NCBI GenBank assembly: GCA_042571085.1
Contig: JBHPGB010000002.1
Location: 6,796-70,795, forward strand
Reading direction: 5' to 3'
DNA from: Patescibacteria group bacterium
GTDB lineage: Bacteria; Patescibacteriota; Minisyncoccia; Phycocordibacterales; JBHPGB01
DNA length: 64,000 nt
The notes beneath the pieces are model-generated. The model did no database searches. It was not told where the DNA came from and saw only the letters and a program-made list of their open reading frames with translations. How positions within the stretch are numbered: position 1 is the first letter of the stretch; each line of letters opens with the position of its first letter. A program made the position numbers and the translations under genes. This document shows, piece by piece, positions 3,261-54,459 of this stretch.

Positions 3261-3292
3261 TAGCGAGTAATATTTTTTTGCTCGCTCTTTTT

Positions 3293-5902
3293 TTATAAAT
3301 GTTTTTTCAAATACTCTCCTGTAATTGATTTTTTGTTATCGGCCACCTGCTCTGGTGTACCCTTCGCAATCAAATTTCCGCCACCCTTTCCTCCCTCAGG
3401 GCCGATGTCTACTATATAATCAGCTGTTTTTACTATATCTAAATTGTGTTCAATTAAAACAACCGTGTTTCCTTTATCTACTAATTTCTGTAAAATTTCA
3501 ATCAATTTTTTCACATCTTCATAATGCAAACCAACAGTTGGCTCATCCAAAAGATAAATAGTTTTTTGCACATGAGGACGATACAATTCTGAAGAAATTT
3601 TTACTCTCTGTGCTTCTCCACCAGAAAGCGTCGTTGCTGATTGTCCCAATTCCAAATACCCAAGCCCTACATCATTCAAACTTTTTAGACGATCGTGAAT
3701 TGCTGGAATATCTTCAAAAAATTCCAGAGCTTCTTCAACTGTCATTTTAAGCACATCGTAAATATTTTTCTTTTTATACTTTACTTCCAAAGTTTCTTTT
3801 TCAAATCTTTTTCCGCCACACACATCACACTTCACATACACAGTCGGCAGAAAATGCATTTCAACAGCTATCTGCCCATTACCTTGGCATGATTCGCAGC
3901 GACCACCCTTCACGTTAAAACTAAAGCGGTTAGCTTTCCAGCCACGAAATCGCGCTTCTTCTGTTGCCGCAAACAAATCTCTAATATGTGTAAACGAACC
4001 AGTATATGTAGCTGGGTTAGATCTTGGTGTGCGTCCAATCGGTGCTTGATCTATAAGAATAGAACGAGAAACATATTCAGAACCAGTAAAGTCTGCGCAA
4101 TTATATATATCATTGCTTCTATATTTTTTATCGAAACGCGCCCGTAAGTTTTTATACAAAATCTCATGCATCAAAGAGCTTTTTCCAGAACCAGATACAC
4201 CGGTAATCACACTCATTTTCCCAAGCGGAAAATCAACATTCATGTTTTTGATGTTAAATATATTTCCTCCGCGAATTTTGATTGAACCTTTGTCTTGATC
4301 GCGGCGTTTATGCGGTACTTCTATTTCAGTATCTCCACGCAAATAATCAAGTGTTAAAGATTTTGATGGGTTTGTTTTTGCTGATAAAAGTTTTTCCAAA
4401 TCATCTGCAACAACAATCTCACCGCCATGTATACCCGCCTTTGGACCGATGTCCACAATATAATCAGAAGCAAAAATAGTATCCTCATCGTGCTCGACAA
4501 CAATGATGGTGTTGCCAAGGTCACGTAGGTTTTGAAGTGTTTTTATGAGACGGTCATTATCACGCTGGTGTAGGCCAATAGTAGGCTCATCAAGCACATA
4601 CAGTGCTCCAACCAAGCGAGAACCAAGCTGTGATGCCAAGCGAATACGCTGTGCTTCTCCACCAGAGAGTGTGTTGGCGCGTCTATCTAATGTAAGATAT
4701 TCAATTCCAACATCAAGCATGAAAAATAACCGAGCTTCAATTTCCCTCATAACAGGCTCGGATATTTCTTTATCTCTAACAGACAATTTCAAACTAGTGA
4801 AAAATTCTGCTGCTTCGCCAATAGACATTGATGTCACTTCTACTATATTTTTACCCCCGATTAAAACATTAAGCGCTTCCGATCTTAATCTCGCACCTTT
4901 ACACGTATCACATACCTCTTTACCAAAGAAATGTTTTGTACCAAGGCCATTACAAGCCTCACAAGCACCATAAGGTGAGTTGAATGAGAAAAGTCTTGGC
5001 TCAACTTCTGGATATGAAAAACCATCCTCCGGACAAGAAAACTTCGATGAAAGTATTATTTCATCATCATCTATGCGCACGCGTACAAGCCCATCAGCTT
5101 CATCAAGAGCGCGCTCTAGAGATTCCTGTAAGCGTTGTTTAGTATCTTTCGCATTCTCTTTAAAATCAAGTAAATCAATTTCATCCACCAAAACGTCGAT
5201 GTCATGCTTCTTTGTTTTGGTGAGCACAATCTGGTCACGTAAAGATTTCATTTTTCCGTCAACTCGCACATTTATATACCCTTTGCCTAGTAAATCATAA
5301 AGAAGTTGGTAATACTCACCCTTTCTCCCACGCACCACCGGTGCAAAAAGCTGTACTGAGCTAGACTTATATTCCACACCCATTACTTTTTTTGTACCAT
5401 TTTTCTTTTGTGTCTTTCCTGCACCTTTCACTTTTTTCAAAACAAAATTCAAAATCTCTTCATTAGAAAGCTTTTCAATTTCCCTACCACACTCCAAACA
5501 ATGCGGCTTTCCAATACGCGCAAAAAGTACACGCATATAATCGTATATTTCTGTAATAGTCGCCACTGTTGAACGTGGGTTGTTTGATCTACTTTTCTGA
5601 TCAATAGAAATCGCTGGAGAAAGCCCGACGATCTCATCAACATCTGGCTTCTGCATTTGACGCAAAAATTGTCGCGCGTATGCAGACAAAGATTCTACAT
5701 AACGACGCTGTCCTTCAGCAAAAATAGTATCAAAAGCAAGAGAAGATTTTCCTGATCCAGATAATCCAGTAAACACAACCATCTTATTGCGAGGCATTTC
5801 TACCGTCACATCTTTGAGATTATGTGTGCGGGCACCTTTTACTATTATTTTGCCAGACTCGAACATGTCTGATTCTTTTTTGTTATTTGTATTCTTTTTC
5901 AT
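3293..5902 (-). CDS. uvrA: excinuclease ABC subunit A (start uncertain: MKKNT at 5902 or MFESG at 5866)
   Basis: Two ABC ATPase modules ([20 protein letters not shown]), zinc-finger CxxC pairs, LSGGEAQR signatures. Confidence 0.9.
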
Positions 5903-23011: not shown

Positions 23012-23166
23012 GGGTTAATTGTATCATACGTCAAAACACACGTCAGTACTGACGTGTGTTTTGTGAAAAATTGATTCACGTCTTGGTGCCCTTTGTAGGA
23101 GCATCCGCGATGCGAATTCGAGCTTTGTGATACAGAAGCTTCGCTTCGTATCACAAACCCTAATTC

Positions 23167-23281
23167 GGCTGCCAGATAGGGACTCGCCTCTCACAAATCA
23201 AAGATTTGTTCCGAAACGCACTATTTTTATAATCGCTTCGCTCTTTAAAAATAGGCGCCTACGGTTCGAGTCCTATATCTG
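23167..23281. repeat. tRNA-associated element copy 1: conserved core of about 76 nt flanked by an inverted and a direct copy of the tRNA-Gln 3' end
   Basis: GGCTGCCAGATAGGGACTCG (reverse complement of the tRNA-Gln T-arm/acceptor 3' strand), then core CCTCTCACAAATCAAAGATTTGTTCCGAAACGCACTATTTTTATA...AAAAATAGGCGCCTAC, then GGTTCGAGTCCTATATCTG. Same core at 40405-40522. Confidence 0.75.
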
Positions 23282-23332
23282 AAAAACACGCAATAAAACA
23301 GACCTCACAAAAGAGGTCTGTTTTATTGCGAG

Positions 23333-23403
23333 CTGCCAGATAGGGACTCGAACCCCAATAGACGGCACCAAAAGCCGTAGTCCTACCATTAGACGATCTG
23401 GCA
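23333..23403 (-). tRNA. tRNA-Gln (anticodon TTG)
   Basis: Manual fold: acceptor TGCCAGA/TCTGGCA, D-stem GTCT/GGAC, anticodon stem ACGGC/GCCGT with loop TTTTGGT, T-arm TGGGG-TTCGAGT-CCCTA. CCA not encoded. Confidence 0.75.
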
Positions 23404-23475
23404 ATGATTATATTTATAGTGCATTCATCACAACACACTCGGCCGTCAATAGCGGCACCAGCTATCTAAAAACTG

Positions 23476-23505
23476 CGTAGTCCTACCATTAGACGATCTG
23501 GCAAT
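23476..23505 (-). pseudogene. exact duplicate of the 5' 28 nt of tRNA-Gln (5'-half pseudo-copy) about 70 nt upstream of the tRNA
   Basis: CGTAGTCCTACCATTAGACGATCTGGCAAT is identical to the 5' part of the tRNA gene at 23376-23405. Confidence 0.7.
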
Positions 23506-23613
23506 AAATTAGACTTGTGATCTAATAGTCTATAATTTACCGTAAAAACGGTCATTTAGCAACTTAAGAAGCGGCGAAAAGCAAAGCTTTTCGCCGCCTT
23601 CTACTATTGTTGA

Positions 23614-35835: not shown

Positions 35836-35899
35836 GCCGGAGTGGTGGAATTGGTATACACGCACGACTCAAAATCGTGTTCCGCAAGGATTGAGGGTT
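35836..35899 (+). pseudogene. truncated tRNA-Leu(CAA) copy: the 5' 64 nt are identical to the complete gene 200 nt downstream, then diverge
   Basis: GCCGGAGTGGTGGAATTGGTATACACGCACGACTCAAAATCGTGTTCCGCAAGGATTGAGGGTT followed by GAACTCCGAGC instead of the T-loop/acceptor. Confidence 0.65.
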
Positions 35900-35931
35900 G
35901 AACTCCGAGCTAGACGAGGAGTGAAAAACCT

Positions 35932-35987
35932 TTTGAGGTAGATTAGAGTGAGGTACGAACGAATAATGTACCCAAAAGGTGTACTGA
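35932..35987. repeat. conserved tRNA-cluster motif (family 2), copy at the Leu(CAA) locus
   Basis: TTTGAGGTAGATTAGAGTGAGGTACGAACGAATAATGTACCCAAAAGGT. Related copies at 50976-51032, 51405-51452, partial at 49932-49947. Confidence 0.65.
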
Positions 35988-36033
35988 TCCTGTAAGGATC
36001 AAGTCCGGACTTGAACCCTTTAAAATTAAATAT

Positions 36034-36115
36034 GCCGGAGTGGTGGAATTGGTATACACGCACGACTCAAAATCGTGTTCCGCAAGGATTGAGGGTTCAA
36101 GTCCCTCCTCCGGCA
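36034..36115 (+). tRNA. tRNA-Leu (anticodon CAA), type II with long variable arm
   Basis: Acceptor GCCGGAG/CTCCGGC. Anticodon stem CACGA/TCGTG, loop CTCAAAA. T-arm GGGTTCAAGTCCC. Confidence 0.8.
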
Positions 36116-36228
36116 CAAAAAGAAAAATCTCAAGTTTTGCTTGAGATTTTTACTTTTTACAAACTAGACAAATGTAATCAAAAAGACTACTATGCTGCCA
36201 GGCTTCCTATGATCTAATGGAGAATATA

Positions 36229-40404: not shown

Positions 40405-40522
40405 GTGCGCCGAGTAGGATTTGCCTCTCACAAATCAAAGATTTGTTCCGAAACGCACTATTTTTATAGTCGTTAAACACTCCTTAAAAATAGGCGCCTA
40501 CGGTTCAAACCCTACTCGGCAT
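40405..40522. repeat. tRNA-associated element copy 2: same conserved core flanked by an inverted and a direct copy of the tRNA-Tyr 3' end
   Basis: GTGCGCCGAGTAGGATTTG (reverse complement of the tRNA-Tyr 3' end), core identical to the 23187-23262 core over its first 46 nt and last 16 nt, then GGTTCAAACCCTACTCGGCAT. Confidence 0.75.
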
Positions 40523-40572
40523 AATAAATATAAAAAACGATAATCTTTTCAGATTACCGTTTTTTATGTTTA

Positions 40573-40658
40573 TGGTGCGCCGAGTAGGATTTGAACCTAC
40601 GTAGGACAAGTCCGGCAGATTTACAGTCTGCTGCGATTGACCACTCCGCCATCGACGC
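40573..40658 (-). tRNA. tRNA-Tyr (anticodon GTA), long variable arm, CCA encoded
   Basis: GCGTCGATGGCGGAGTGGTCAATCGCAGCAGACTGTAAATCTGCCGGACTTGTCCTACGTAGGTTCAAATCCTACTCGGCGCACCA. Confidence 0.8.
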
Positions 40659-49365: not shown

Positions 49366-49559
49366 AAATTAAACAGGAGTGACTATTTGAAACAAACCCC
49401 AGTGAAATATCATAGTTGTAATATGTTTTTGCAAAAACATATTACAACTATGACTATTTTAAAATTTTCTAAGAAAGGAAAATTTTAAAAATCTTTCACG
49501 GGGTGATGATTTTTATAGTCATAAAATCACTTTGTGATTTTATTCCTTAAAAATCTATC

Positions 49560-49886
49560 ATGCCTGAAAACTATTCAAAAAAGAAAGTGAGTGAGGTTTT
49601 GAAAACACTCGCTGCCGATTTTCTTCAAAAGGAGTCTAGCGGCAAATCGCTCATAACGGTGACCGATTGTACGGTTGCAGACAACCAGCGTAATGCGGTA
49701 ATATTCTTTAGTGTACTCCCAGCAGAAGCAGAGGAAGAGGCGCTGAACTTCACTAAACGACAAAGGAGAGAGTTTCGTGAGTATATAAAAAAACATTCAA
49801 GATTGCGATATGTTCCTTTTGTAGATTTCGAAATTGATCTCGGTGAAAAGAATAGACAAAGGATTGAGGAATTATTAAATGAATAA
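49560..49886 (+). CDS. rbfA: ribosome-binding factor A
   Basis: KH-like RbfA fold motifs. Conserved infB-rbfA order. Confidence 0.8.
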   Translation: MPENYSKKKVSEVLKTLAADFLQKESSGKSLITVTDCTVADNQRNAVIFFSVLPAEAEEEALNFTKRQRREFREYIKKHSRLRYVPFVDFEIDLGEKNRQRIEELLNE

Positions 49887-49893
49887 ATAGAAA

Positions 49894-49921
49894 GGTCTGG
49901 TGGCGAAGTGGTAACGTAGCG
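49894..49921 (+). pseudogene. tRNA-Cys-like 5' fragment (26 of 28 nt identical to the 5' part of tRNA-Cys 120 nt downstream)
   Basis: GGTCTGGTGGCGAAGTGGTAACGTAGCG versus GGCCTGGTGGCGAAGTGGTAACGCAGCG. Followed by a family-2 motif fragment (AAAGGAGTGAAGCGAC) rather than an anticodon arm. Confidence 0.55.
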
Positions 49922-50041
49922 CTCAATGAAGAAAGGAGTGAAGCGACTATTCTGAATTAGTGCAAAGCCGATAATCGATTCCCGTACATTATCATGTTAG
50001 AATTGTTACAATATTAAAATAAGCAAAGCTTGAAATTATAA

Positions 50042-50113
50042 GGCCTGGTGGCGAAGTGGTAACGCAGCGGTTTGCAAAACCGATATGCGCGGGTTCAATT
50101 CCCGCCCAGGCCT
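50042..50113 (+). tRNA. tRNA-Cys (anticodon GCA)
   Basis: Acceptor GGCCTGG/CCAGGCC. Anticodon loop TTGCAAA. T-arm GCGGG-TTCAATT-CCCGC. Confidence 0.75.
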
Positions 50114-50200
50114 CAATTTTCCATGCGATTTAATTATTAAACAGGTAAACGCATATATTTACGTATTGCGTATTGGTTTACCTAATGATATTATGAATAA

Positions 50201-50692
50201 ATGCACGGAAAAGAGAAAAAAAGAAGATGGTCAGAAGATGACTTAAAAAATGCTGTGTTGAATTCTACAAGTATTCGACAAGTTCTGGGTAAGCTTAATT
50301 TAAAACAAGCTGGTGGAAATTATGTGCAGGTCAAATATTATATTAAAAAATATAATATTGATATAAAACATTTTACTGGACAAGGCTGGAACAAGGGAAT
50401 GCGCGGCATTGGTAAACCTAGAATTTCTTTAAAAGAAATTCTAACAAAAAATAGTTCTTTTCAAAGTTATAAATTAAAAAAAAGACTTTTTAAAGAAGGT
50501 CTAAAAAAACCACAATGTGAAGAGTGTGGCTGGGCAAAAAAATCTAAAGACGGAAGAATTCCTTTAGAGTTAGATCATGTGAATGGTACCCGAACAGATA
50601 ATCGATTAGAAAATTTACGAGTACTATGCCCAAACTGCCATAGTCTAAAACCTACACATCGTGGATTGAACAAAAAAAAGGGCCAGTGGTGA
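50201..50692 (+). CDS. free-standing HNH endonuclease (homing-endonuclease-like), embedded in the tRNA cluster; the stop overlaps the 5' end of tRNA-Leu(TAA)
   Basis: HNH motif CEECGW...LELDHVNGTRTDNRLENLRVLCPNCH. Basic N-terminal DNA-binding-like region. Confidence 0.7.
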   Translation: MHGKEKKRRWSEDDLKNAVLNSTSIRQVLGKLNLKQAGGNYVQVKYYIKKYNIDIKHFTGQGWNKGMRGIGKPRISLKEILTKNSSFQSYKLKKRLFKEGLKKPQCEECGWAKKSKDGRIPLELDHVNGTRTDNRLENLRVLCPNCHSLKPTHRGLNKKKGQW

Positions 50693-50762
50693 AATCGGTA
50701 TACACGCAACACTTAAAATGTTGTCCGCTTTGCGGGTGAGGGTTCAAGTCCCTCCTGGCCCA
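50680..50762 (+). tRNA. tRNA-Leu (anticodon TAA), type II
   Basis: Acceptor GGGCCAG/CTGGCCC. Anticodon stem CAACA/TGTTG, loop CTTAAAA. Long variable arm. T-arm AGGGTTCAAGTCCCT. Confidence 0.75.
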
Positions 50763-50826
50763 CAAAATCTAATGCAGATTTTACGAATCTGTGTTAATAT
50801 TTTTAAATTAATGAATTGATACATAT

Positions 50827-50899
50827 CCGCCTGTAGCTCAGTTGGTAGAGCATCCGACTCTTAATCGGCAGGTCGAAGGTTCAAATCCTTCCGGGCGGA
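50827..50899 (+). tRNA. tRNA-Lys (anticodon CTT)
   Basis: CCGCCTGTAGCTCAGTTGGTAGAGCATCCGACTCTTAATCGGCAGGTCGAAGGTTCAAATCCTTCCGGGCGGA. Confidence 0.8.
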
Positions 50900-50975
50900 C
50901 ACGCAGCGTTAGCGTAGTGCACAACCGGAAGCACAGCAATTTTGAAAAAATTGCGTCATGCGGATTTGAAAAGCT

Positions 50976-51032
50976 TTTGAGATAGATTGGAGTGCGGAGC
51001 ACGAACAATATATCCAAAAGGTTGAAGTGTGA
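50976..51032. repeat. conserved tRNA-cluster motif (family 2), copy downstream of tRNA-Lys
   Basis: TTTGAGATAGATTGGAGTGCGGAGCACGAACAATATATCCAAAAGGTTGAAGTGTGA. Covarying triloop hairpin GTGC-GGA-GCAC (GTG-AGG-TAC and TGC-GAA-GCA in other copies). Confidence 0.65.
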
Positions 51033-51134
51033 TTTTTATGAACACTGAAAGACCATTTGAGTTAATTTCGAATCTGAAAGATGAAGAAAATAACCAAATG
51101 GTATACTGCTCATGTAATGAGGGCAGAATCTGTA

Positions 51135-51162
51135 AGATTCAAATCCTTCCGGGCGGACACGC
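51135..51162 (+). repeat. direct repeat of the 3' 28 nt of tRNA-Lys, about 230 nt downstream of the gene
   Basis: GATTCAAATCCTTCCGGGCGGACACGCA versus tRNA GGTTCAAATCCTTCCGGGCGGACACGCA (27 of 28 nt). Confidence 0.7.
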
Positions 51163-51185
51163 AATTTAGCGTAAAATTAAATAAT

Positions 51186-51267
51186 GCGGGTGTGGTGGAA
51201 TTGGTATACACGCTAGTCTTAGGAACTAGTGCCTCACGGCTTAAGAGTTCGAGTCTCTTCACCCGCA
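51186..51267 (+). tRNA. tRNA-Leu (anticodon TAG), type II
   Basis: Acceptor GCGGGTG/CACCCGC. Anticodon stem CTAGT/ACTAG, loop CTTAGGA. T-arm GAGTTCGAGTCTC. Confidence 0.8.
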
Positions 51268-51404
51268 CAAAACAAAAAAGTGTGATGCGTCAGCATTACA
51301 CTTTTATTGTTTTGTAGTGTGGTGGAGAAACTCGAAAAAAGCTTCCGGTATACAAGAAGCGACTGGAAGGAGCTTCTTGTCGGAAGCGACGGGGTCGCGT
51401 AGCT

Positions 51405-51475
51405 TAGATATTTTGGAGTGCGAAGCATGAACAAAATATCAAGCGAAGGCGACCGAGTCTCTTCACCCGCACAAA
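51405..51475 (+). repeat. family-2 motif copy fused to a 22-nt direct repeat of the tRNA-Leu(TAG) 3' end
   Basis: TAGATATTTTGGAGTGCGAAGCATGAACAAAATATCAAGCGAAGGCGAC followed by CGAGTCTCTTCACCCGCACAAA (identical to the tRNA 3' end plus 3 flanking nt). Confidence 0.7.
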
Positions 51476-51638
51476 TAAAAGACGAAAATGCTATGCATTT
51501 TCGTCTTTTTGCTTGTATTTAAAAAGTGATACTACCTTGACTTTTAACCTATTTTATGCTTAAATATAGCCAGAACAGTTCGGGGCTTTAGGGATTAATT
51601 CCCTCCCCTTTTGACAATTTTTTGACTGGAGAATAATC

Positions 51639-53349: not shown

Positions 53350-53649
53350 CTAAACAGGGTTTGTGAATCCAAAAGTATTGGCTAAGAATGTAACTATGCC
53401 CATAACGGAAATCATAATAAACATACCAAAGAGCCCCCACATGATATGCTTCTTGCCTTGCTCACGCGCATTTTCATCATTTGCTTGAAACAAGAAGCGT
53501 GCGATTCCCCAAAGGAATAATACAAGGGCAAGTGCAAACAAAAATCCAATAAGAGGATTTATTATGTTGTCTACAACCCTATCAATAAGTGGCTCAAGCC
53601 CAGACTCTACTACCGCAGCATGCACTGTTTGTACATTTAGAACATTCAT
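53350..53649 (-). CDS. VirB2/TrbC-like small membrane protein, paralogue 1 (start at MNVLNV; the ORF-track start at 53697 would overlap the upstream paralogue)
   Basis: Two hydrophobic helices separated by a conserved charged loop ANDENAREQGKKH. Confidence 0.45.
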   Translation of the reverse strand: MNVLNVQTVHAAVVESGLEPLIDRVVDNIINPLIGFLFALALVLFLWGIARFLFQANDENAREQGKKHIMWGLFGMFIMISVMGIVTFLANTFGFTNPV

Positions 53650-53653
53650 AGAT

Positions 53654-53977
53654 TTATATTCTTGGTAATGTGATTGTACCACCTGTCTGTACACCAAATG
53701 TATTAGCTACAACTTCAACAAGACCCCACACCGCAACCATCACGAAGAGTGCCAAGATACCATAGATCATGATGCTCTTTCCTTTTTCTTTATCTTCATC
53801 AGCCTTGAAGATGTACTGTGCCAATCCATAGAAAAATCCAATAAGAGCAACAGTCATCACAATTGGAATAATTAAATCCAATATTTGTTTAAACTTGTTT
53901 AAAACAGATATAGCATCTGCTGCCAATGCAACACTAGGAAGTGCTACTGCACCAGCAATAATAAGAAATCTTTTCAT
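53654..53977 (-). CDS. VirB2/TrbC-like small membrane protein, paralogue 2
   Basis: Signal peptide. Two TM helices. Loop KADEDKEKGKS. Confidence 0.45.
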   Translation of the reverse strand: MKRFLIIAGAVALPSVALAADAISVLNKFKQILDLIIPIVMTVALIGFFYGLAQYIFKADEDKEKGKSIMIYGILALFVMVAVWGLVEVVANTFGVQTGGTITLPRI

Positions 53978-54117
53978 ACAAATAAAATTAATTGATTAAA
54001 TTGATTAAAAAAATTAAAAGCGACCTTGTAATTTATACTTATATAATAGCCAATATACTCACAAATAACAAATCAAATGTGGAAAATTAATTTTCAACCT
54101 ACAAAATAAAGGTGTTA

Positions 54118-54459
54118 TTAAAAACCGAAAAATGTTCTCCGTACAGCAATCGCAATTCCCCACACTGCAATAAGAGCAAATAAGGCAAAAATACCAAATA
54201 CCATAGCTTTGCGCCCTTCCTCGCGAGCATTTGCATCGTCTGCCTTCAATACCATCTTCGCAATTCCCCAAAAAAATCCTGCCAAAGCGGCTGTTATTAG
54301 AATAGGGATCGCAATATCAAAAATACGTGTGAAAATACCTAGAAAATCTGCAAAATTTGTAGGAGCCGCAGCAAAAGAAATGGTTGGGCTAAGTAATAAT
54401 ACCACGTATAAAATTGCCGTAGATAAGATATTTATTCTTCTGTTTTTTAAATTTAACAT
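54118..54459 (-). CDS. VirB2/TrbC-like small membrane protein, paralogue 3
   Basis: Signal peptide. Two TM helices. Loop KADDANAREEGRK. Confidence 0.45.
   Translation of the reverse strand: MLNLKNRRINILSTAILYVVLLLSPTISFAAAPTNFADFLGIFTRIFDIAIPILITAALAGFFWGIAKMVLKADDANAREEGRKAMVFGIFALFALIAVWGIAIAVRRTFFGF

Follow-up and report, generated by a model that had tools for sequence, protein, structure and literature searches.

Small, protein-less insertion elements with a conserved folded core, distributed across the Patescibacteria and able to interrupt and replace a gene end without an integrase, are our reading of the duplicated tRNA ends analyzed here, with a probability of about one half. The analysis was made on a 64-kb window (the whole stretch of DNA under study, 64,000 nt), and it supports the direct repeats of tRNA ends as the two borders of small insertions. 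The recurring "55-nt motif" of the original prediction proved to be one helix (P2) of a conserved structured element.

All copies shared one layout. The intact gene end (X'), often including its own terminator, is followed by its own reverse complement (rc-arm), a key feature that the original prediction had missed, then by the core, and by a second direct copy of the gene end 3' of the core (X). What had been described as a 3'-end direct repeat is X, and there is an even chance that X is the original gene end, left stranded directly after the core. The inserted cassette would then comprise X' (a replacement end, often with a terminator), rc-arm and core, the gene staying intact. In its minimal form the core consisted of helices P2 and P3, to which the full-length form adds Pa, Pb and Pc; cores measured ~70 to >200 nt and elements ~100–290 nt. 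Type 2 is the mirror image of this, with the tRNA's 5' part stranded upstream. The site in tRNA genes was the T-loop (position 55–58), and in rplK and a few other protein genes it lay ~12–15 nt before the end of the stop codon; target genes (tRNA, rplK, other protein genes) were highly expressed, and the inserts held no ORF. This anatomy was observed together with a covarying fold on the gene-sense strand, target-matched arms, a variety of targets, tandem copies and presence/absence differences between close strains, and with no recombinase encoded in the elements or beside them. Either as insertion elements or as host RNA modules they would form a new class.

Element copies in the window

The window held at least five intact or variant copies and two remnants. 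Partial copies adjoined 6/7 of its tRNA genes, beyond the tRNA cluster alone, and two core families were distinguished, A (with the motif first described) and B (at tRNA-Gln and tRNA-Tyr). The four tRNAs of the cluster were present where they had been placed, Cys (50042–50114, intact), Leu(TAA) (50680–50763), Lys and Leu(TAG). The claimed partial copies (the Cys 5' fragment, the 3'-end repeats of Lys and Leu(TAG), and a truncated Leu(CAA) gene) were real, far beyond chance (E = 8e-7 to 2e-32).

At tRNA-Lys(CTT) (50827–50900, + strand, intact), X' spans 50880–50905, the 3' part from the T-loop. A small hairpin, GCAATTTT GAA AAAATTGC (50936–50954, +), was seen in the sequence between the tRNA and the element, followed by the rc-arm GCGGATTTGAA (50960–50970, +), a degenerate reverse complement of the T-loop and T-stem. 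The element is full-length. Its helix Pa (50973–51021, +; covariance model, 34 bits), with a GA/GAA internal loop and the tip GUGC-GGA-GCAC, is the first of the motif copies originally listed, and is followed by a short hairpin at the Pb position (51027–51045, +). Helix P2 (51053–51101, +; 68 bits over 51050–51122) is a further motif copy that had not been listed. After it come the junction UAUACUG with helix P3 (CUCA UGUAA UGAG; 51102–51121, +) and hairpin Pc (GAAUC UGUAA GAUUC; 51126–51140, +), the 3' strand of which continues into X (51138–51163, +). This X, the displaced tRNA-Lys 3' end from the T-loop to the discriminator plus 5 nt, repeats 26 nt at 100% identity (E = 4e-9) and extends 5 to ~10 nt into the trailer.

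At tRNA-Leu(TAG) (51186–51268, +, intact; X' 51250–51271), an intrinsic terminator (51276–51305, +) lies 3' of the intact gene, within the inserted cassette. The rc-arm (51316–51336, +) makes 17 base pairs (2 G-U) with the 3' part of the tRNA, and its last letters, ACTCGAA, are the T-loop TTCGAGT in reverse complement; this stretch had been called a degenerate Leu 5' fragment, and consists mainly of reverse-complemented tRNA-Leu(TAG) 3' sequence. A long Pa-like hairpin (51341–51387, +) and a divergent P2-like hairpin with the tip GUGC-GAA-GCAU (51402–51444, +) follow. The latter is the second motif copy of the original prediction, present as claimed but as a divergent variant that scored 9 bits. 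X (51454–51475, +), the displaced 3' end, repeats 22 nt at 100% (E = 7e-7), and the original terminator then stands at 51477–51509. The structure of the Lys and Leu(TAG) elements was identical in three independent assemblies (NCBI, Logan and ENA) and is therefore not an assembly artefact, which had been named as a possible refutation.

The tRNA-Cys 5' fragment (49894–49921, +; repeat search), positions 1–28 with 2 mismatches, is the left border of a 148-nt insertion and aligns over 25 nt at 96% identity (E = 8e-7). The intervening 120 nt (49922–50041, +) are a decayed element in which covariance model R1 found no significant match; only a 13-nt apical-like motif, GGAGTGAAGCGAC, is retained (49935–49947). 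The "partial" motif proposed at 49932–49947 shrinks to a 13-nt match to the apical GAG..GCGA motif. The whole 148-nt insert was absent from two sister-strain contigs (L001 and L002). At tRNA-Leu(TAA) the shared motif was missing.

A gene for an HNH endonuclease lies within the cluster and is conserved at the equivalent position in a relative (L006); the ORFs near 120 element copies (within 3 kb) showed no association of it with the element elsewhere. Consensus promoter matches in the cluster numbered 10 vs. a shuffle expectation of 6.9 ± 3.2, and were not above it.

The tRNA-Leu(CAA) locus has the type 2 arrangement. A truncated gene, positions 1–55 (35836–35899, +), is 100% identical to the intact gene over 64 nt (E = 2e-32), and a family-A element (35900–36000, +; 72 bits) is inserted at T-loop position 55/56. 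The element consists of a 5' segment GAACUCCGAGCUAGACGAGGAGUGAAAAA, P2 (35929–35979), the junction UGUACU and P3 (35986–36000), C56 of the tRNA remnant being the final base of P3 at 36000. The rest of the tRNA, positions 56–62 (AAGUCC), and then the reverse complement of positions 51–62 (GGACUUGAACCC) occupy 36001–36018 (+), followed by a 15-nt leader and the intact tRNA-Leu(CAA) at 36034–36116. The motif copies claimed here and within the Lys Pa helix were borne out by the covariance model (72 and 34 bits).

The family-B duplicates lie outside the coordinates first described. The element after tRNA-Tyr (40405–40565, − strand; fold −52.9 kcal/mol, z = −7.4) comprises a terminator (40532–40565), rc-arm (40504–40520), core (40424–40503) and X (40405–40423); CCA is encoded in the intact gene end and not in X. 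The element after tRNA-Gln (23168–23327, −) is built likewise, with terminator 23292–23327, rc-arm 23265–23281, core 23187–23264 and X 23168–23186. Upstream of tRNA-Gln, a remnant (23405–23504, −) holds a 29-nt, 100% copy of the tRNA 5' end (23476–23504) and then a degenerate tRNA-like stretch; at the equivalent place a sister strain carries a complete type 2 family-A element, which is absent from the window. Recent transposition was considered for the identical family-B cores and rejected, because the same 35-nt stretch was identical in unrelated metagenomes; the identity is explained by constraint.

Fold of the core and its gene-end targets

An exact 24-mer of the core occurred at more than 118 loci in GTDB genomes, a lower bound. 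Among the matches listed, nearly all were from named Patescibacteria groups or MAGs labeled only "bacterium", the exception being two contigs of one MAG labeled Acidimicrobiales. Loci were sampled through this one exact 24-mer (at least 118 matches), and the prevalence figures are biased accordingly. Covariance model R1 found 118 copies in 99 of the loci so derived. Pair counts were taken from an alignment (A5) that had been fitted to the model: 92.9% of alignment cells were paired (slid controls ≤55%), cells with both sides changed numbered 346 vs. 77 in shuffles (0/500 shuffles reached the observed value), and there were 65 G-U vs. 18 A-C pairs. Covariation was strong on the gene-sense strand, which confirmed the covarying hairpin that had been put forward under a small-RNA alternative, and family B had two invariant G-U pairs. 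The core was the most conserved part of the element and was identical between distant lineages of Patescibacteria, its stems showing compensatory changes and its junctions being invariant; secondary structure on one strand was thus backed by compensatory changes, as in a structured RNA. In 12 full-length copies the order of helices was that of a multi-hairpin junction, and the 3' border was usually ..GUGACC or the P3 strand.

Rfam 15 at its gathering score returned tRNAs only (window and 18 related loci), and at E ≤ 10 nothing credible over the cluster or one full-length copy beyond palindrome-driven, miRNA-like noise. Hammerhead, twister and group I folds were considered by eye and set aside; the junctions GAMC and UGUACUG were unlike a hammerhead core, and no P3/P7 pseudoknot was visible. 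Viral, phage and plasmid collections gave no matches to the element. No description of such elements was found in the papers searched, the nearest subjects being the group I introns of Patescibacteria tRNA genes (PMC13011429) and tRNA gene fragments in prokaryotes (PMC9897764).

Of 120 copies, 49 lay within 400 nt of a tRNA, 38 of these downstream on the same strand, and others stood directly after rplK, with nusG upstream. The same core followed more than 15 tRNA species, rplK and other protein genes, and the original prediction of miniature elements that target several tRNAs holds to this extent, one element type being found at different tRNA species. That the motif might be a generic tRNA promoter or terminator is ruled out, as it was absent at Leu(TAA), always accompanied by duplicates, and also present after rplK and further protein genes. 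A 3'-end copy lay downstream of 42/122 tRNAs vs. 0 upstream, and a 5' copy upstream of 12/122 vs. 1 downstream. Among tRNAs that had not been used for locus discovery, 12/45 were affected (at least 27%).

X was nearly perfect (12 mismatches in 804 nt), starting at position 54–57 in 30/37 loci and ending within −4 to +5 nt of the discriminator in 35/37. The rc-arms were often imperfect or split by a hairpin, the split falling exactly at the acceptor/T junction and the hairpin having a conserved GG-containing loop. A naive scan for the longest inverted repeat, and a cognate vs. non-cognate duplex test on all copies, gave too much noise, since in full-length copies additional helices separate the arms from P2/P3; they were replaced by a test on tRNA loci only, in which the duplex of rc-arm and tRNA 3' part averaged −26.2 kcal/mol vs. 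−14.3 in controls (P = 1.6e-7). At rplK loci the rc-arm complemented X', with compensatory differences between species. For likeness to tRNA, the helix of rc-arm and X was present and X ended at the discriminator; the first 1–2 acceptor pairs were often unpaired and the T-loop was replaced. Copies after protein genes had no tRNA-like acceptor helix. Arms were copies of the local gene end, different at every locus, without terminal inverted repeats constant in the family, and the direct repeats measured 17–64 nt, bounded by T-loop and gene end. Two further ideas on X were rejected. A retro-copy signature (CCA in X' and not in X, at tRNA-Tyr and at Leu(TAG) of L006) was dropped as it fails at most loci, and X as the real 3' exon of a spliced tRNA was abandoned since its T-loop part was altered in several tRNA-Ser loci.

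Copies differed between strains 97–99% identical, tandem copies occurred, and one of two related Kaiserbacteria carried an extra tandem element. In an orthologous pair of loci from diverged species (L019 and L107), core, junctions and X were conserved and the flanks randomized, a pattern that, on the sequences compared, looks more like purifying selection acting at host level than like the free decay of a selfish insertion. That orthologues retain core and X so strongly suggests that the fold still works after insertion, for spread of the element or for the host.

No integrase, transposase or reverse transcriptase was found: Pfam on 35 proteins of the window returned only housekeeping functions, bar the one HNH endonuclease, and the ORFs clustered from the surroundings of 120 copies (3 kb) were those of NusG, L11, EF-G and further housekeeping proteins, with no recombinase or HNH cluster. 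The original prediction had suggested looking in relatives for the motif beside integrase genes, as a way to a parental element, and no integrase appeared among these ORFs.

Mechanism and alternative explanations

Under the insertion reading, the inverted arm would anneal to the gene end and recreate the target duplex beside the core. A single strand exchange or cross-over would join this mimic of the target, or X', to the gene end in the chromosome, the catalyst being a host enzyme or the core itself, and recombination of X' with X would excise the element precisely. A more far-reaching version, possible but less probable than not, is a new class of protein-less, self-guided element, in which an RNA core with an arm complementary to an abundant RNA or gene 3' end inserts there and supplies a replacement end, which would let the host gene survive. 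At tRNA targets the product of a self-guided element would also be a mimic of the tRNA top half.

Foremost among the alternatives, and possible, is a host RNA module that arrived maybe by insertion and now works as a cis- or trans-acting RNA. It could be a tRNA-like processing or "punctuation" signal, in which the helix of rc-arm and X and a hairpin with a UGGGA loop mimic the acceptor/T top half and might recruit RNase P, RNase Z or the CCA-adding enzyme; a 3'-end stabilizer or terminator module, or a stable small RNA that mimics tRNA, are other possible variants. Strong covariation and invariant junctions speak for such a module, as do the core and X kept intact in orthologues of diverged species with diverged flanks. 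The near identity of X to the tRNA end in 37 loci, its halt at the discriminator, and the hairpin with its conserved GG-containing loop, which divides the rc-arm precisely at the acceptor/T junction, point the same way. However, a processing signal does not need the neighbor's own sequence, three times over, the arms of copies after protein genes are not tRNA-like, and the first acceptor pairs are often missing, e.g. in the Tyr copy. The many tRNAs affected (6/7 in the window, at least 27% elsewhere) fit a host function, but strong terminators often lie between tRNA and element, close strains differ in presence, and tandem and decayed copies occur.

An intron-like ribozyme is unlikely. Here a self- or reverse-splicing core would use the rc-arm as guide to the exon at the insertion site, in the manner of the internal guide sequence of a group I intron, genomic copies arising via reverse transcription and recombination. 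Complementarity of the arm to the flanking gene extends over the point of insertion (in type 2, the inverted segment bridges positions 51–55 and 56–62), abundant RNAs are preferred, and tRNA genes of Patescibacteria often contain group I introns (PMC13011429). But the intact gene precedes the element (in type 2, an intact second copy follows), so that no splicing is required, and at several tRNA-Ser loci, where X has a changed T-loop portion, splicing would not yield a normal tRNA. The core is ornate and multi-helix with GNRA-type loops, yet no Rfam intron or ribozyme matched even at E ≤ 10, a P3/P7-type pseudoknot and a terminal G were not evident, and no reverse transcriptase was found nearby.

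Direct repeats of a tRNA 3' end from the T-loop are the usual footprint of a tyrosine integrase, and together with small size, multiple copies and precise loss between the repeats they favor a classical non-autonomous DNA element (a MITE with a transposase acting in trans and a long target-site duplication) or the scar of an internally deleted integrase island. We consider this improbable to the same degree as an intron-like origin. A transposase cannot bind terminal inverted sequences that are locus-specific, the repeats reach 17–64 nt, the core stems covary with a G-U bias, as in RNA, and one core serves more than 15 tRNA species and protein genes vs. one att site per integrase; neither integrase or transposase neighbors nor viral, phage or plasmid matches were found. 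Decayed integrase-borne islands, as originally proposed, are at odds with a motif that is the most conserved part and has compensatory stems, and with the lack of integrase, transposase or reverse transcriptase in the window or recurring beside the 120 copies. Homing or gene conversion, raised together with them, is a possible explanation.

A template-switch by-product (fold-back at terminator or T-loop palindromes, with no dedicated element) or an assembly artefact is extremely improbable: the forward-inverted-forward path of the gene end resembles fold-back products and the T-loop TTCGAA is palindromic, but a conserved covarying core of ~70 to >200 nt sits at the junction in over 100 lineages, rplK has the same layout without a T-loop, and three independent assemblies were identical.

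If the self-guided version is true, hundreds of lineages of a retargetable, RNA-programmed insertion system without element-encoded protein would be present in the Patescibacteria. If the insertion reading holds, very widespread, unannotated, structured non-coding elements lie at the most-expressed gene ends of genome-reduced Patescibacteria, which would account for the tRNA gene fragments that litter these genomes and provide a concrete case of target-matched insertion without an element-encoded protein. Testable questions are raised by it, namely whether the core is a ribozyme or a handle for a host enzyme, how arms are rewritten for new targets, and tRNA mimicry. Programmable insertion without a protein, or with a single host factor, would be relevant to genome engineering and to the evolution of introns and integrative elements. 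With a host function instead, the elements would still be a new, large and abundant class of bacterial RNA with a locus-specific helix.

Comparison with known systems

Integrase-borne elements and their miniature derivatives (genomic islands, prophages, CIMEs) resemble the present elements in their tRNA-gene site, often the T-loop, in the replacement 3' end, which keeps the gene intact, with the displaced end as a direct repeat, in precise removal by recombination of the repeats, and in tandem arrays. They differ in that here no integrase is encoded in cis or nearby, the insert is 100–290 nt and not kilobases, one core family is used at many tRNA species and also at protein genes, and an inverted target copy lies beside a covarying, RNA-like core. 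MITE-like repeats (Correia/NEMIS, RPE of Rickettsia, REP/BIME, ERIC) are likewise small, non-coding, multi-copy, structured and often at gene ends, and some sit within genes without inactivating them. MITEs have terminal inverted repeats constant in the family and duplications of 2–10 bp, whereas here the arms are locus-specific, the duplications are 17–64 nt, and the conserved part is internal and covarying.

Group I introns share the phylum and the host genes, and are protein-less structured RNAs with a guide complementary to the flanking exon (PMC13011429). Those of Patescibacteria tRNAs lie in the anticodon loop and interrupt the gene, splicing is obligatory, and they match the Rfam model Intron_gpI (PMC13011429); here, in contrast, a complete gene precedes, its end is duplicated, and no intron model matches. 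Plant mitochondrial t-elements, mascRNA, tmRNA and YrlA combine an acceptor/T-like end helix with a large inserted domain and are, like the present elements, possible substrates of tRNA-end enzymes. These mimics are single-copy genes or fixed signals with a sequence of their own, whereas here the helix is copied from the upstream gene and the core replaces the T-loop; the copies after protein genes are not tRNA-like, and no Rfam tmRNA or YrlA match was obtained.

In the attP hairpin of CTX-phi (XerCD) and in integron attC sites, inverted segments fold so that the stem mimics the target duplex, and structure outweighs sequence in recognition. Direct target copies outside and an inverted copy inside after integration are features of these systems and were found here. 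They depend on defined recombinases, use dif or attI targets and carry gene cargo, whereas here the targets are arbitrary, unrelated gene ends and the fold has an RNA-like G-U bias; no gene for a XerCD- or IntI-type recombinase lies within the 64-kb window. The omega RNA of IS200/IS605 and the bridge RNA of IS110 belong to elements with TnpB, IscB or an IS110 recombinase, and their target is not duplicated, in contrast to the long duplications here, with no protein and a guide fully paired with its own complement. What they have in common with the present elements is a conserved scaffold beside a target-matching sequence derived from the flank.

Partial tRNA copies in the window

Four tRNA genes (Cys, Leu(TAA), Lys and Leu(TAG)) were located at 50042-51268 using ARAGORN and Rfam, and three further tRNAs (Gln, Leu(CAA) and Tyr) were found elsewhere in the window. 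All duplicates listed in the original prediction were confirmed with a repeat finder and short-word BLAST (E-values 1e-5 to 1e-32): a tRNA-Cys 5' fragment (49894-49921), copies of the 3' ends of tRNA-Lys (51138-51163) and tRNA-Leu(TAG) (51454-51475), and a 64-nt perfect copy of tRNA-Leu(CAA) (35836-35899). That list was real but incomplete; short-word BLAST also identified repeats of the last 19 nt of tRNA-Gln downstream and of its first 28 nt upstream, and a downstream repeat of the last 19 nt of tRNA-Tyr. Partial copies are present at 6 of the 7 tRNA genes, Leu(TAA) being the sole exception. Assembly artefact had been named as a possible source of the repeats; the Lys and Leu(TAG) arrangement was the same in NCBI, Logan and ENA contigs, which excludes this.

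Pfam scans of 35 window proteins returned housekeeping functions (UvrABC, TGT, Dus, SerRS, DprA, TopA, RelA/SpoT, ParB, ClpB, GyrA, S1, Pth), with an HNH endonuclease as the lone non-housekeeping family, and no integrase, transposase or reverse transcriptase was found among them. The HNH ORF (163 aa, 50201-50692, Pfam HNH and HNH_3) is placed between tRNA-Cys and tRNA-Leu(TAA), covering the first 13 nt of the latter, and has the same position in a more distant relative (locus L006). It was not enriched beside the element in other genomes; its appearance is that of a homing-type nuclease, free-standing within a tRNA cluster. At 53350-54459, several consecutive small genes encode hydrophobic proteins (~107-115 aa); they also occur in L003 and L004, where the counterparts are marked T4SS_pilin (PF18895) in the source records. 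Proteins of 382 aa and 151 aa are encoded upstream of these genes, both lineage-specific and lacking any Pfam match.

Architecture and fold of the elements

The partial copies are parts of elements that comprise an intact gene end (X'), an arm that is its reverse complement (rc-arm), a conserved core and a displaced direct copy of the gene end (X). Two cores were distinguished. Family A holds the recurring ~55-nt motif of the original prediction, which is predicted to form a long hairpin (P2). The base of P2 (CCUUUUG/CAAAAGG) is conserved and its middle covaries; it also has a GA/GAA internal loop and a short stem tipped by a triloop. Next come a junction (UGUACUG) and P3, a hairpin whose loop is UGUAA. 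The clean layout is found after tRNA-Leu(TAG) in L006, which has the same gene order: the intact tRNA, its CCA encoded in the gene, then a terminator, AGCGAGAGAGGACTTGAA (the reverse complement of tRNA positions 54-71), P2, junction, P3 and CCTCTCTCGCTCAC (the displaced 3' end). In the window, tRNA-Lys is followed by one full-length element, with rc-arm (50960-50970), Pa (50973-51021), Pb (51027-51045), P2 (51053-51101), junction and P3 (51102-51121), Pc (51126-51140) and X (51138-51163). For full-length copies, the helices Pa, Pb and Pc and a putative GGUGAG/GUGACC closing helix are a tentative scheme, read by eye from 12 sequences.

The tRNA-Leu(TAG) element is a variant, consisting of terminator, rc-arm (51316-51336), long hairpin, P2-like hairpin (51402-51444), X (51454-51475) and original terminator. 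Its rc-arm had been read as a degenerate Leu 5' fragment. A resemblance to the 5' strand is to be expected of any reverse-complemented acceptor 3' strand, and the end of the arm is the reverse complement of the T-loop. The original observation as a whole was genuine and under-described. Leu(CAA) carries the mirror arrangement (type 2), in which the 5' part of the tRNA is stranded upstream: tRNA 1-55, element, 56-62, reverse complement of 51-62, leader and intact gene. Family B is a near-identical ~80-nt core common to the inserts after tRNA-Tyr and tRNA-Gln, ordered as reverse complement of the T-loop-to-acceptor part of the tRNA, core, and direct copy of the same part. Both inserts are predicted to fold as a three-way junction closed by the two arms (Tyr -52.9 kcal/mol, z = -7.4; Gln z = -4.6). 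At tRNA-Tyr (40575-40593 vs. 40405-40423) and at L006 tRNA-Leu(TAG), CCA is encoded in the intact end and absent from the displaced copy, a difference absent in most other loci.

To describe the fold, a family-A covariance model (R1) was built from 55 copies (E-values are rough, from a short calibration). Among the loci collected with a 24-mer, R1 finds 118 copies in 99 loci, several with two or three. In the R1 alignment, standard pairs occupied 92.9% of cells, 21 of 23 pairs showed changes on both sides, and double-change cells numbered 346 vs. 77 in shuffles (0 of 500 shuffles reached the observed value); when partners were slid, pairing fell to ≤55%. A MAFFT alignment, independent of model fitting, gave the same picture. 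Two diverged species carrying an element at the same tRNA-Ser site (L019 and L107) have wholly different sequences in the Pb-like hairpin, P2b and P3 with pairing kept, identical junctions and X, and unalignable flanks. G-U pairs exceed A-C mismatches (65 vs. 18) and two G-U pairs are invariant in family B, which argues that the fold is carried by the strand of the upstream gene's sense, as expected for RNA.

Targets and distribution

One genome per GTDB species was scanned with the 24-mer CCAAAWGGTRTACTGMTCMTGTAA, covering the P2 base, junction and P3, and at least 118 loci were identified; all were gathered through this one exact 24-mer, so that every count is a minimum and any estimate of prevalence is biased. 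Among the matches listed, nearly all were named Patescibacteria (Saccharibacteria, Paceibacterota/Parcubacteria, Nomura-, Kaiser-, Zambryski- and Taylorbacteria), with some 'bacterium' MAGs and two contigs of one MAG labelled Acidimicrobiales. The latter (L023 and L026, JBLIMJ01) hold typical family-A elements beside low-GC, Patescibacteria-like tRNA loci, and are probably a binning contaminant rather than a genuine presence outside Patescibacteria. Family B was found in five JGI metagenome contigs, one of which (L131) has the probe sequence only, with the rest of the core absent; where readable, the 35-nt 3' core is identical, P2 covaries and the arms fit a different tRNA. The family-A 24-mer pattern and the family-B probe had no match in 2.9 million viral contigs, nor did BLAST of an element copy in phage or plasmid collections. 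Neither the core nor full-length copies are represented by a family in Rfam 15, and a full-text search covering part of the literature returned no description of the element; the nearest paper (PMC13011429) concerns a different thing, group I introns that interrupt Patescibacteria tRNAs in the anticodon loop. The elements appear to be a widespread, undescribed class.

A tRNA was found within 400 nt of 49 of 120 copies among the matches listed, almost always on the same strand, and 38 of the 120 were 100-300 nt downstream of it. For the 122 evaluable tRNAs in the fetched DNA, a 13-mer of the tRNA's own 3' part recurred 15-450 nt downstream in 42 and upstream in 0, and its own 5' 16-mer recurred upstream in 12 and downstream in 1. 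Duplicates were also present in 12 of 45 tRNAs lying >500 nt away from the copy through which their locus was collected. A segment complementary to approximately positions 54-75 was found between tRNA and copy in 40/40 loci with duplicates (mean arm duplex energy -26.2 vs. -14.3 kcal/mol in upstream controls, P = 1.6e-7); in many cases a UGGGA-loop hairpin interrupts this segment at the acceptor/T junction. In the non-redundant loci, X starts at position 54-57 in 30 of 37 and ends -4 to +5 nt from the discriminator in 35 of 37; X and gene differ at 12 of 804 positions. In a Saccharibacteria MAG (L106), ARAGORN calls a tRNA with anticodon TTA ('tRNA-Stop', would read UAA) ~138 nt upstream of a core at 3286-3309, with a downstream element with matching arms; this could be a suppressor tRNA or a miscall.

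The remaining copies follow protein genes, most commonly rplK (L11) with nusG upstream, and in another case a gene for a 600-aa protein. At rplK the rc-arm pairs with the final 8-12 nt of the reading frame, the loop includes or adjoins the stop codon, and the arm varies with the codons between species (ATCGACGTGAA/TTCACGTCGAT, ATTGAAGTAAA/TTTACTTCAAT, GTTAAAGTAAT/ATTACTTTAAC and others). A second, slightly different gene-end copy with a stop codon follows the core, directly before rplA. The arm fits the upstream copy X' and not the downstream copy, which indicates that X', arm and core belong together and that X is the displaced resident end.

Strain differences, proposed insertion and comparison with known systems

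Closely related genomes differ in element content. The 148-nt insert at tRNA-Cys is exactly absent from two sister-strain contigs (97-99% identical), where one clean tRNA-Cys is left. Given the decayed look of the insert, it was more likely lost in these contigs, through recombination of the two repeats, than gained in the window. Upstream of tRNA-Gln, the sister strain has a complete type-2 family-A element and the window a mere remnant. At L125:1122-3000 (equivalent to approximately window 23012-23613), the sister strain has ~1.3 kb of extra DNA between dnaX and tRNA-Gln, including a 289-aa ORF (Asn/Gly-rich, hydrophobic N-terminus) for which no Pfam hit is recorded. After tRNA-Leu(CAA), two related Kaiserbacteria have one element in common, and a second, tandem element of ~190 nt is present in just one of the two. 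Tandem copies also occur in L012, L059 and L093; in these loci and in L014 two or three elements lie head to tail, and the arm of the second fits the gene end stranded by the first, as expected if every insertion regenerates a target. A separate 191-nt insertion was observed between the infB stop and rbfA start codons (49368-49558), which are 4 nt apart in sister contigs L001 and L002. It contains a 44-nt near-perfect, terminator-like palindrome (49410-49453) and a second inverted repeat (49504-49560) that extends to the rbfA ATG; no gene-end duplication was found and R1 scores were at noise level, and it is probably a different small mobile insert.

Most likely, the elements form a family of small inserts, each of which enters a gene at its 3' end and supplies a substitute for the sequence it displaces; this explains both the intact tRNA genes and the '3' repeats'. 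The main alternative is host-level selection: orthologous copies keep core, junctions and X, and X matches the tRNA end almost perfectly, both of which look like its product. At tRNA loci the arm:X helix and the GG-loop hairpin resemble the neighbouring tRNA's acceptor/T top half and D-arm. The element RNA could therefore be a substrate of RNase P, RNase Z or the CCA-adding enzyme, in the manner of plant mitochondrial t-elements or mascRNA; it could also act as a tRNA mimic. However, a processing signal would need no neighbour-derived sequence, terminators often separate gene from element, copies after protein genes are not tRNA-like, and the differences between close strains also speak against it. 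The two readings are compatible, as an element can arrive by insertion and later be retained. An intron-like element, a MITE or integrase scar, and a product of template switching are all less probable explanations.

For insertion with a replacement end, a step can be proposed from the layout. The rc-arm paired with the gene end would reproduce the target duplex, and a single strand exchange between this arm hairpin and the chromosomal site would yield the order X', loop/terminator, rc-arm, core, X, catalyzed by a host enzyme or the RNA itself. The recreation of the target duplex by the inverted copy and gene end has a formal likeness to the folded attP of CTX-phi and to integron attC. Entry with a replacement end would follow the logic of integrative elements in tRNA genes, which the original prediction recognized; its interpretation was half right. 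Four features set the elements apart from every family tested, namely no recombinase, one core with many unrelated targets, an inverted target copy beside the core, and the evolutionary signature of a folded RNA.
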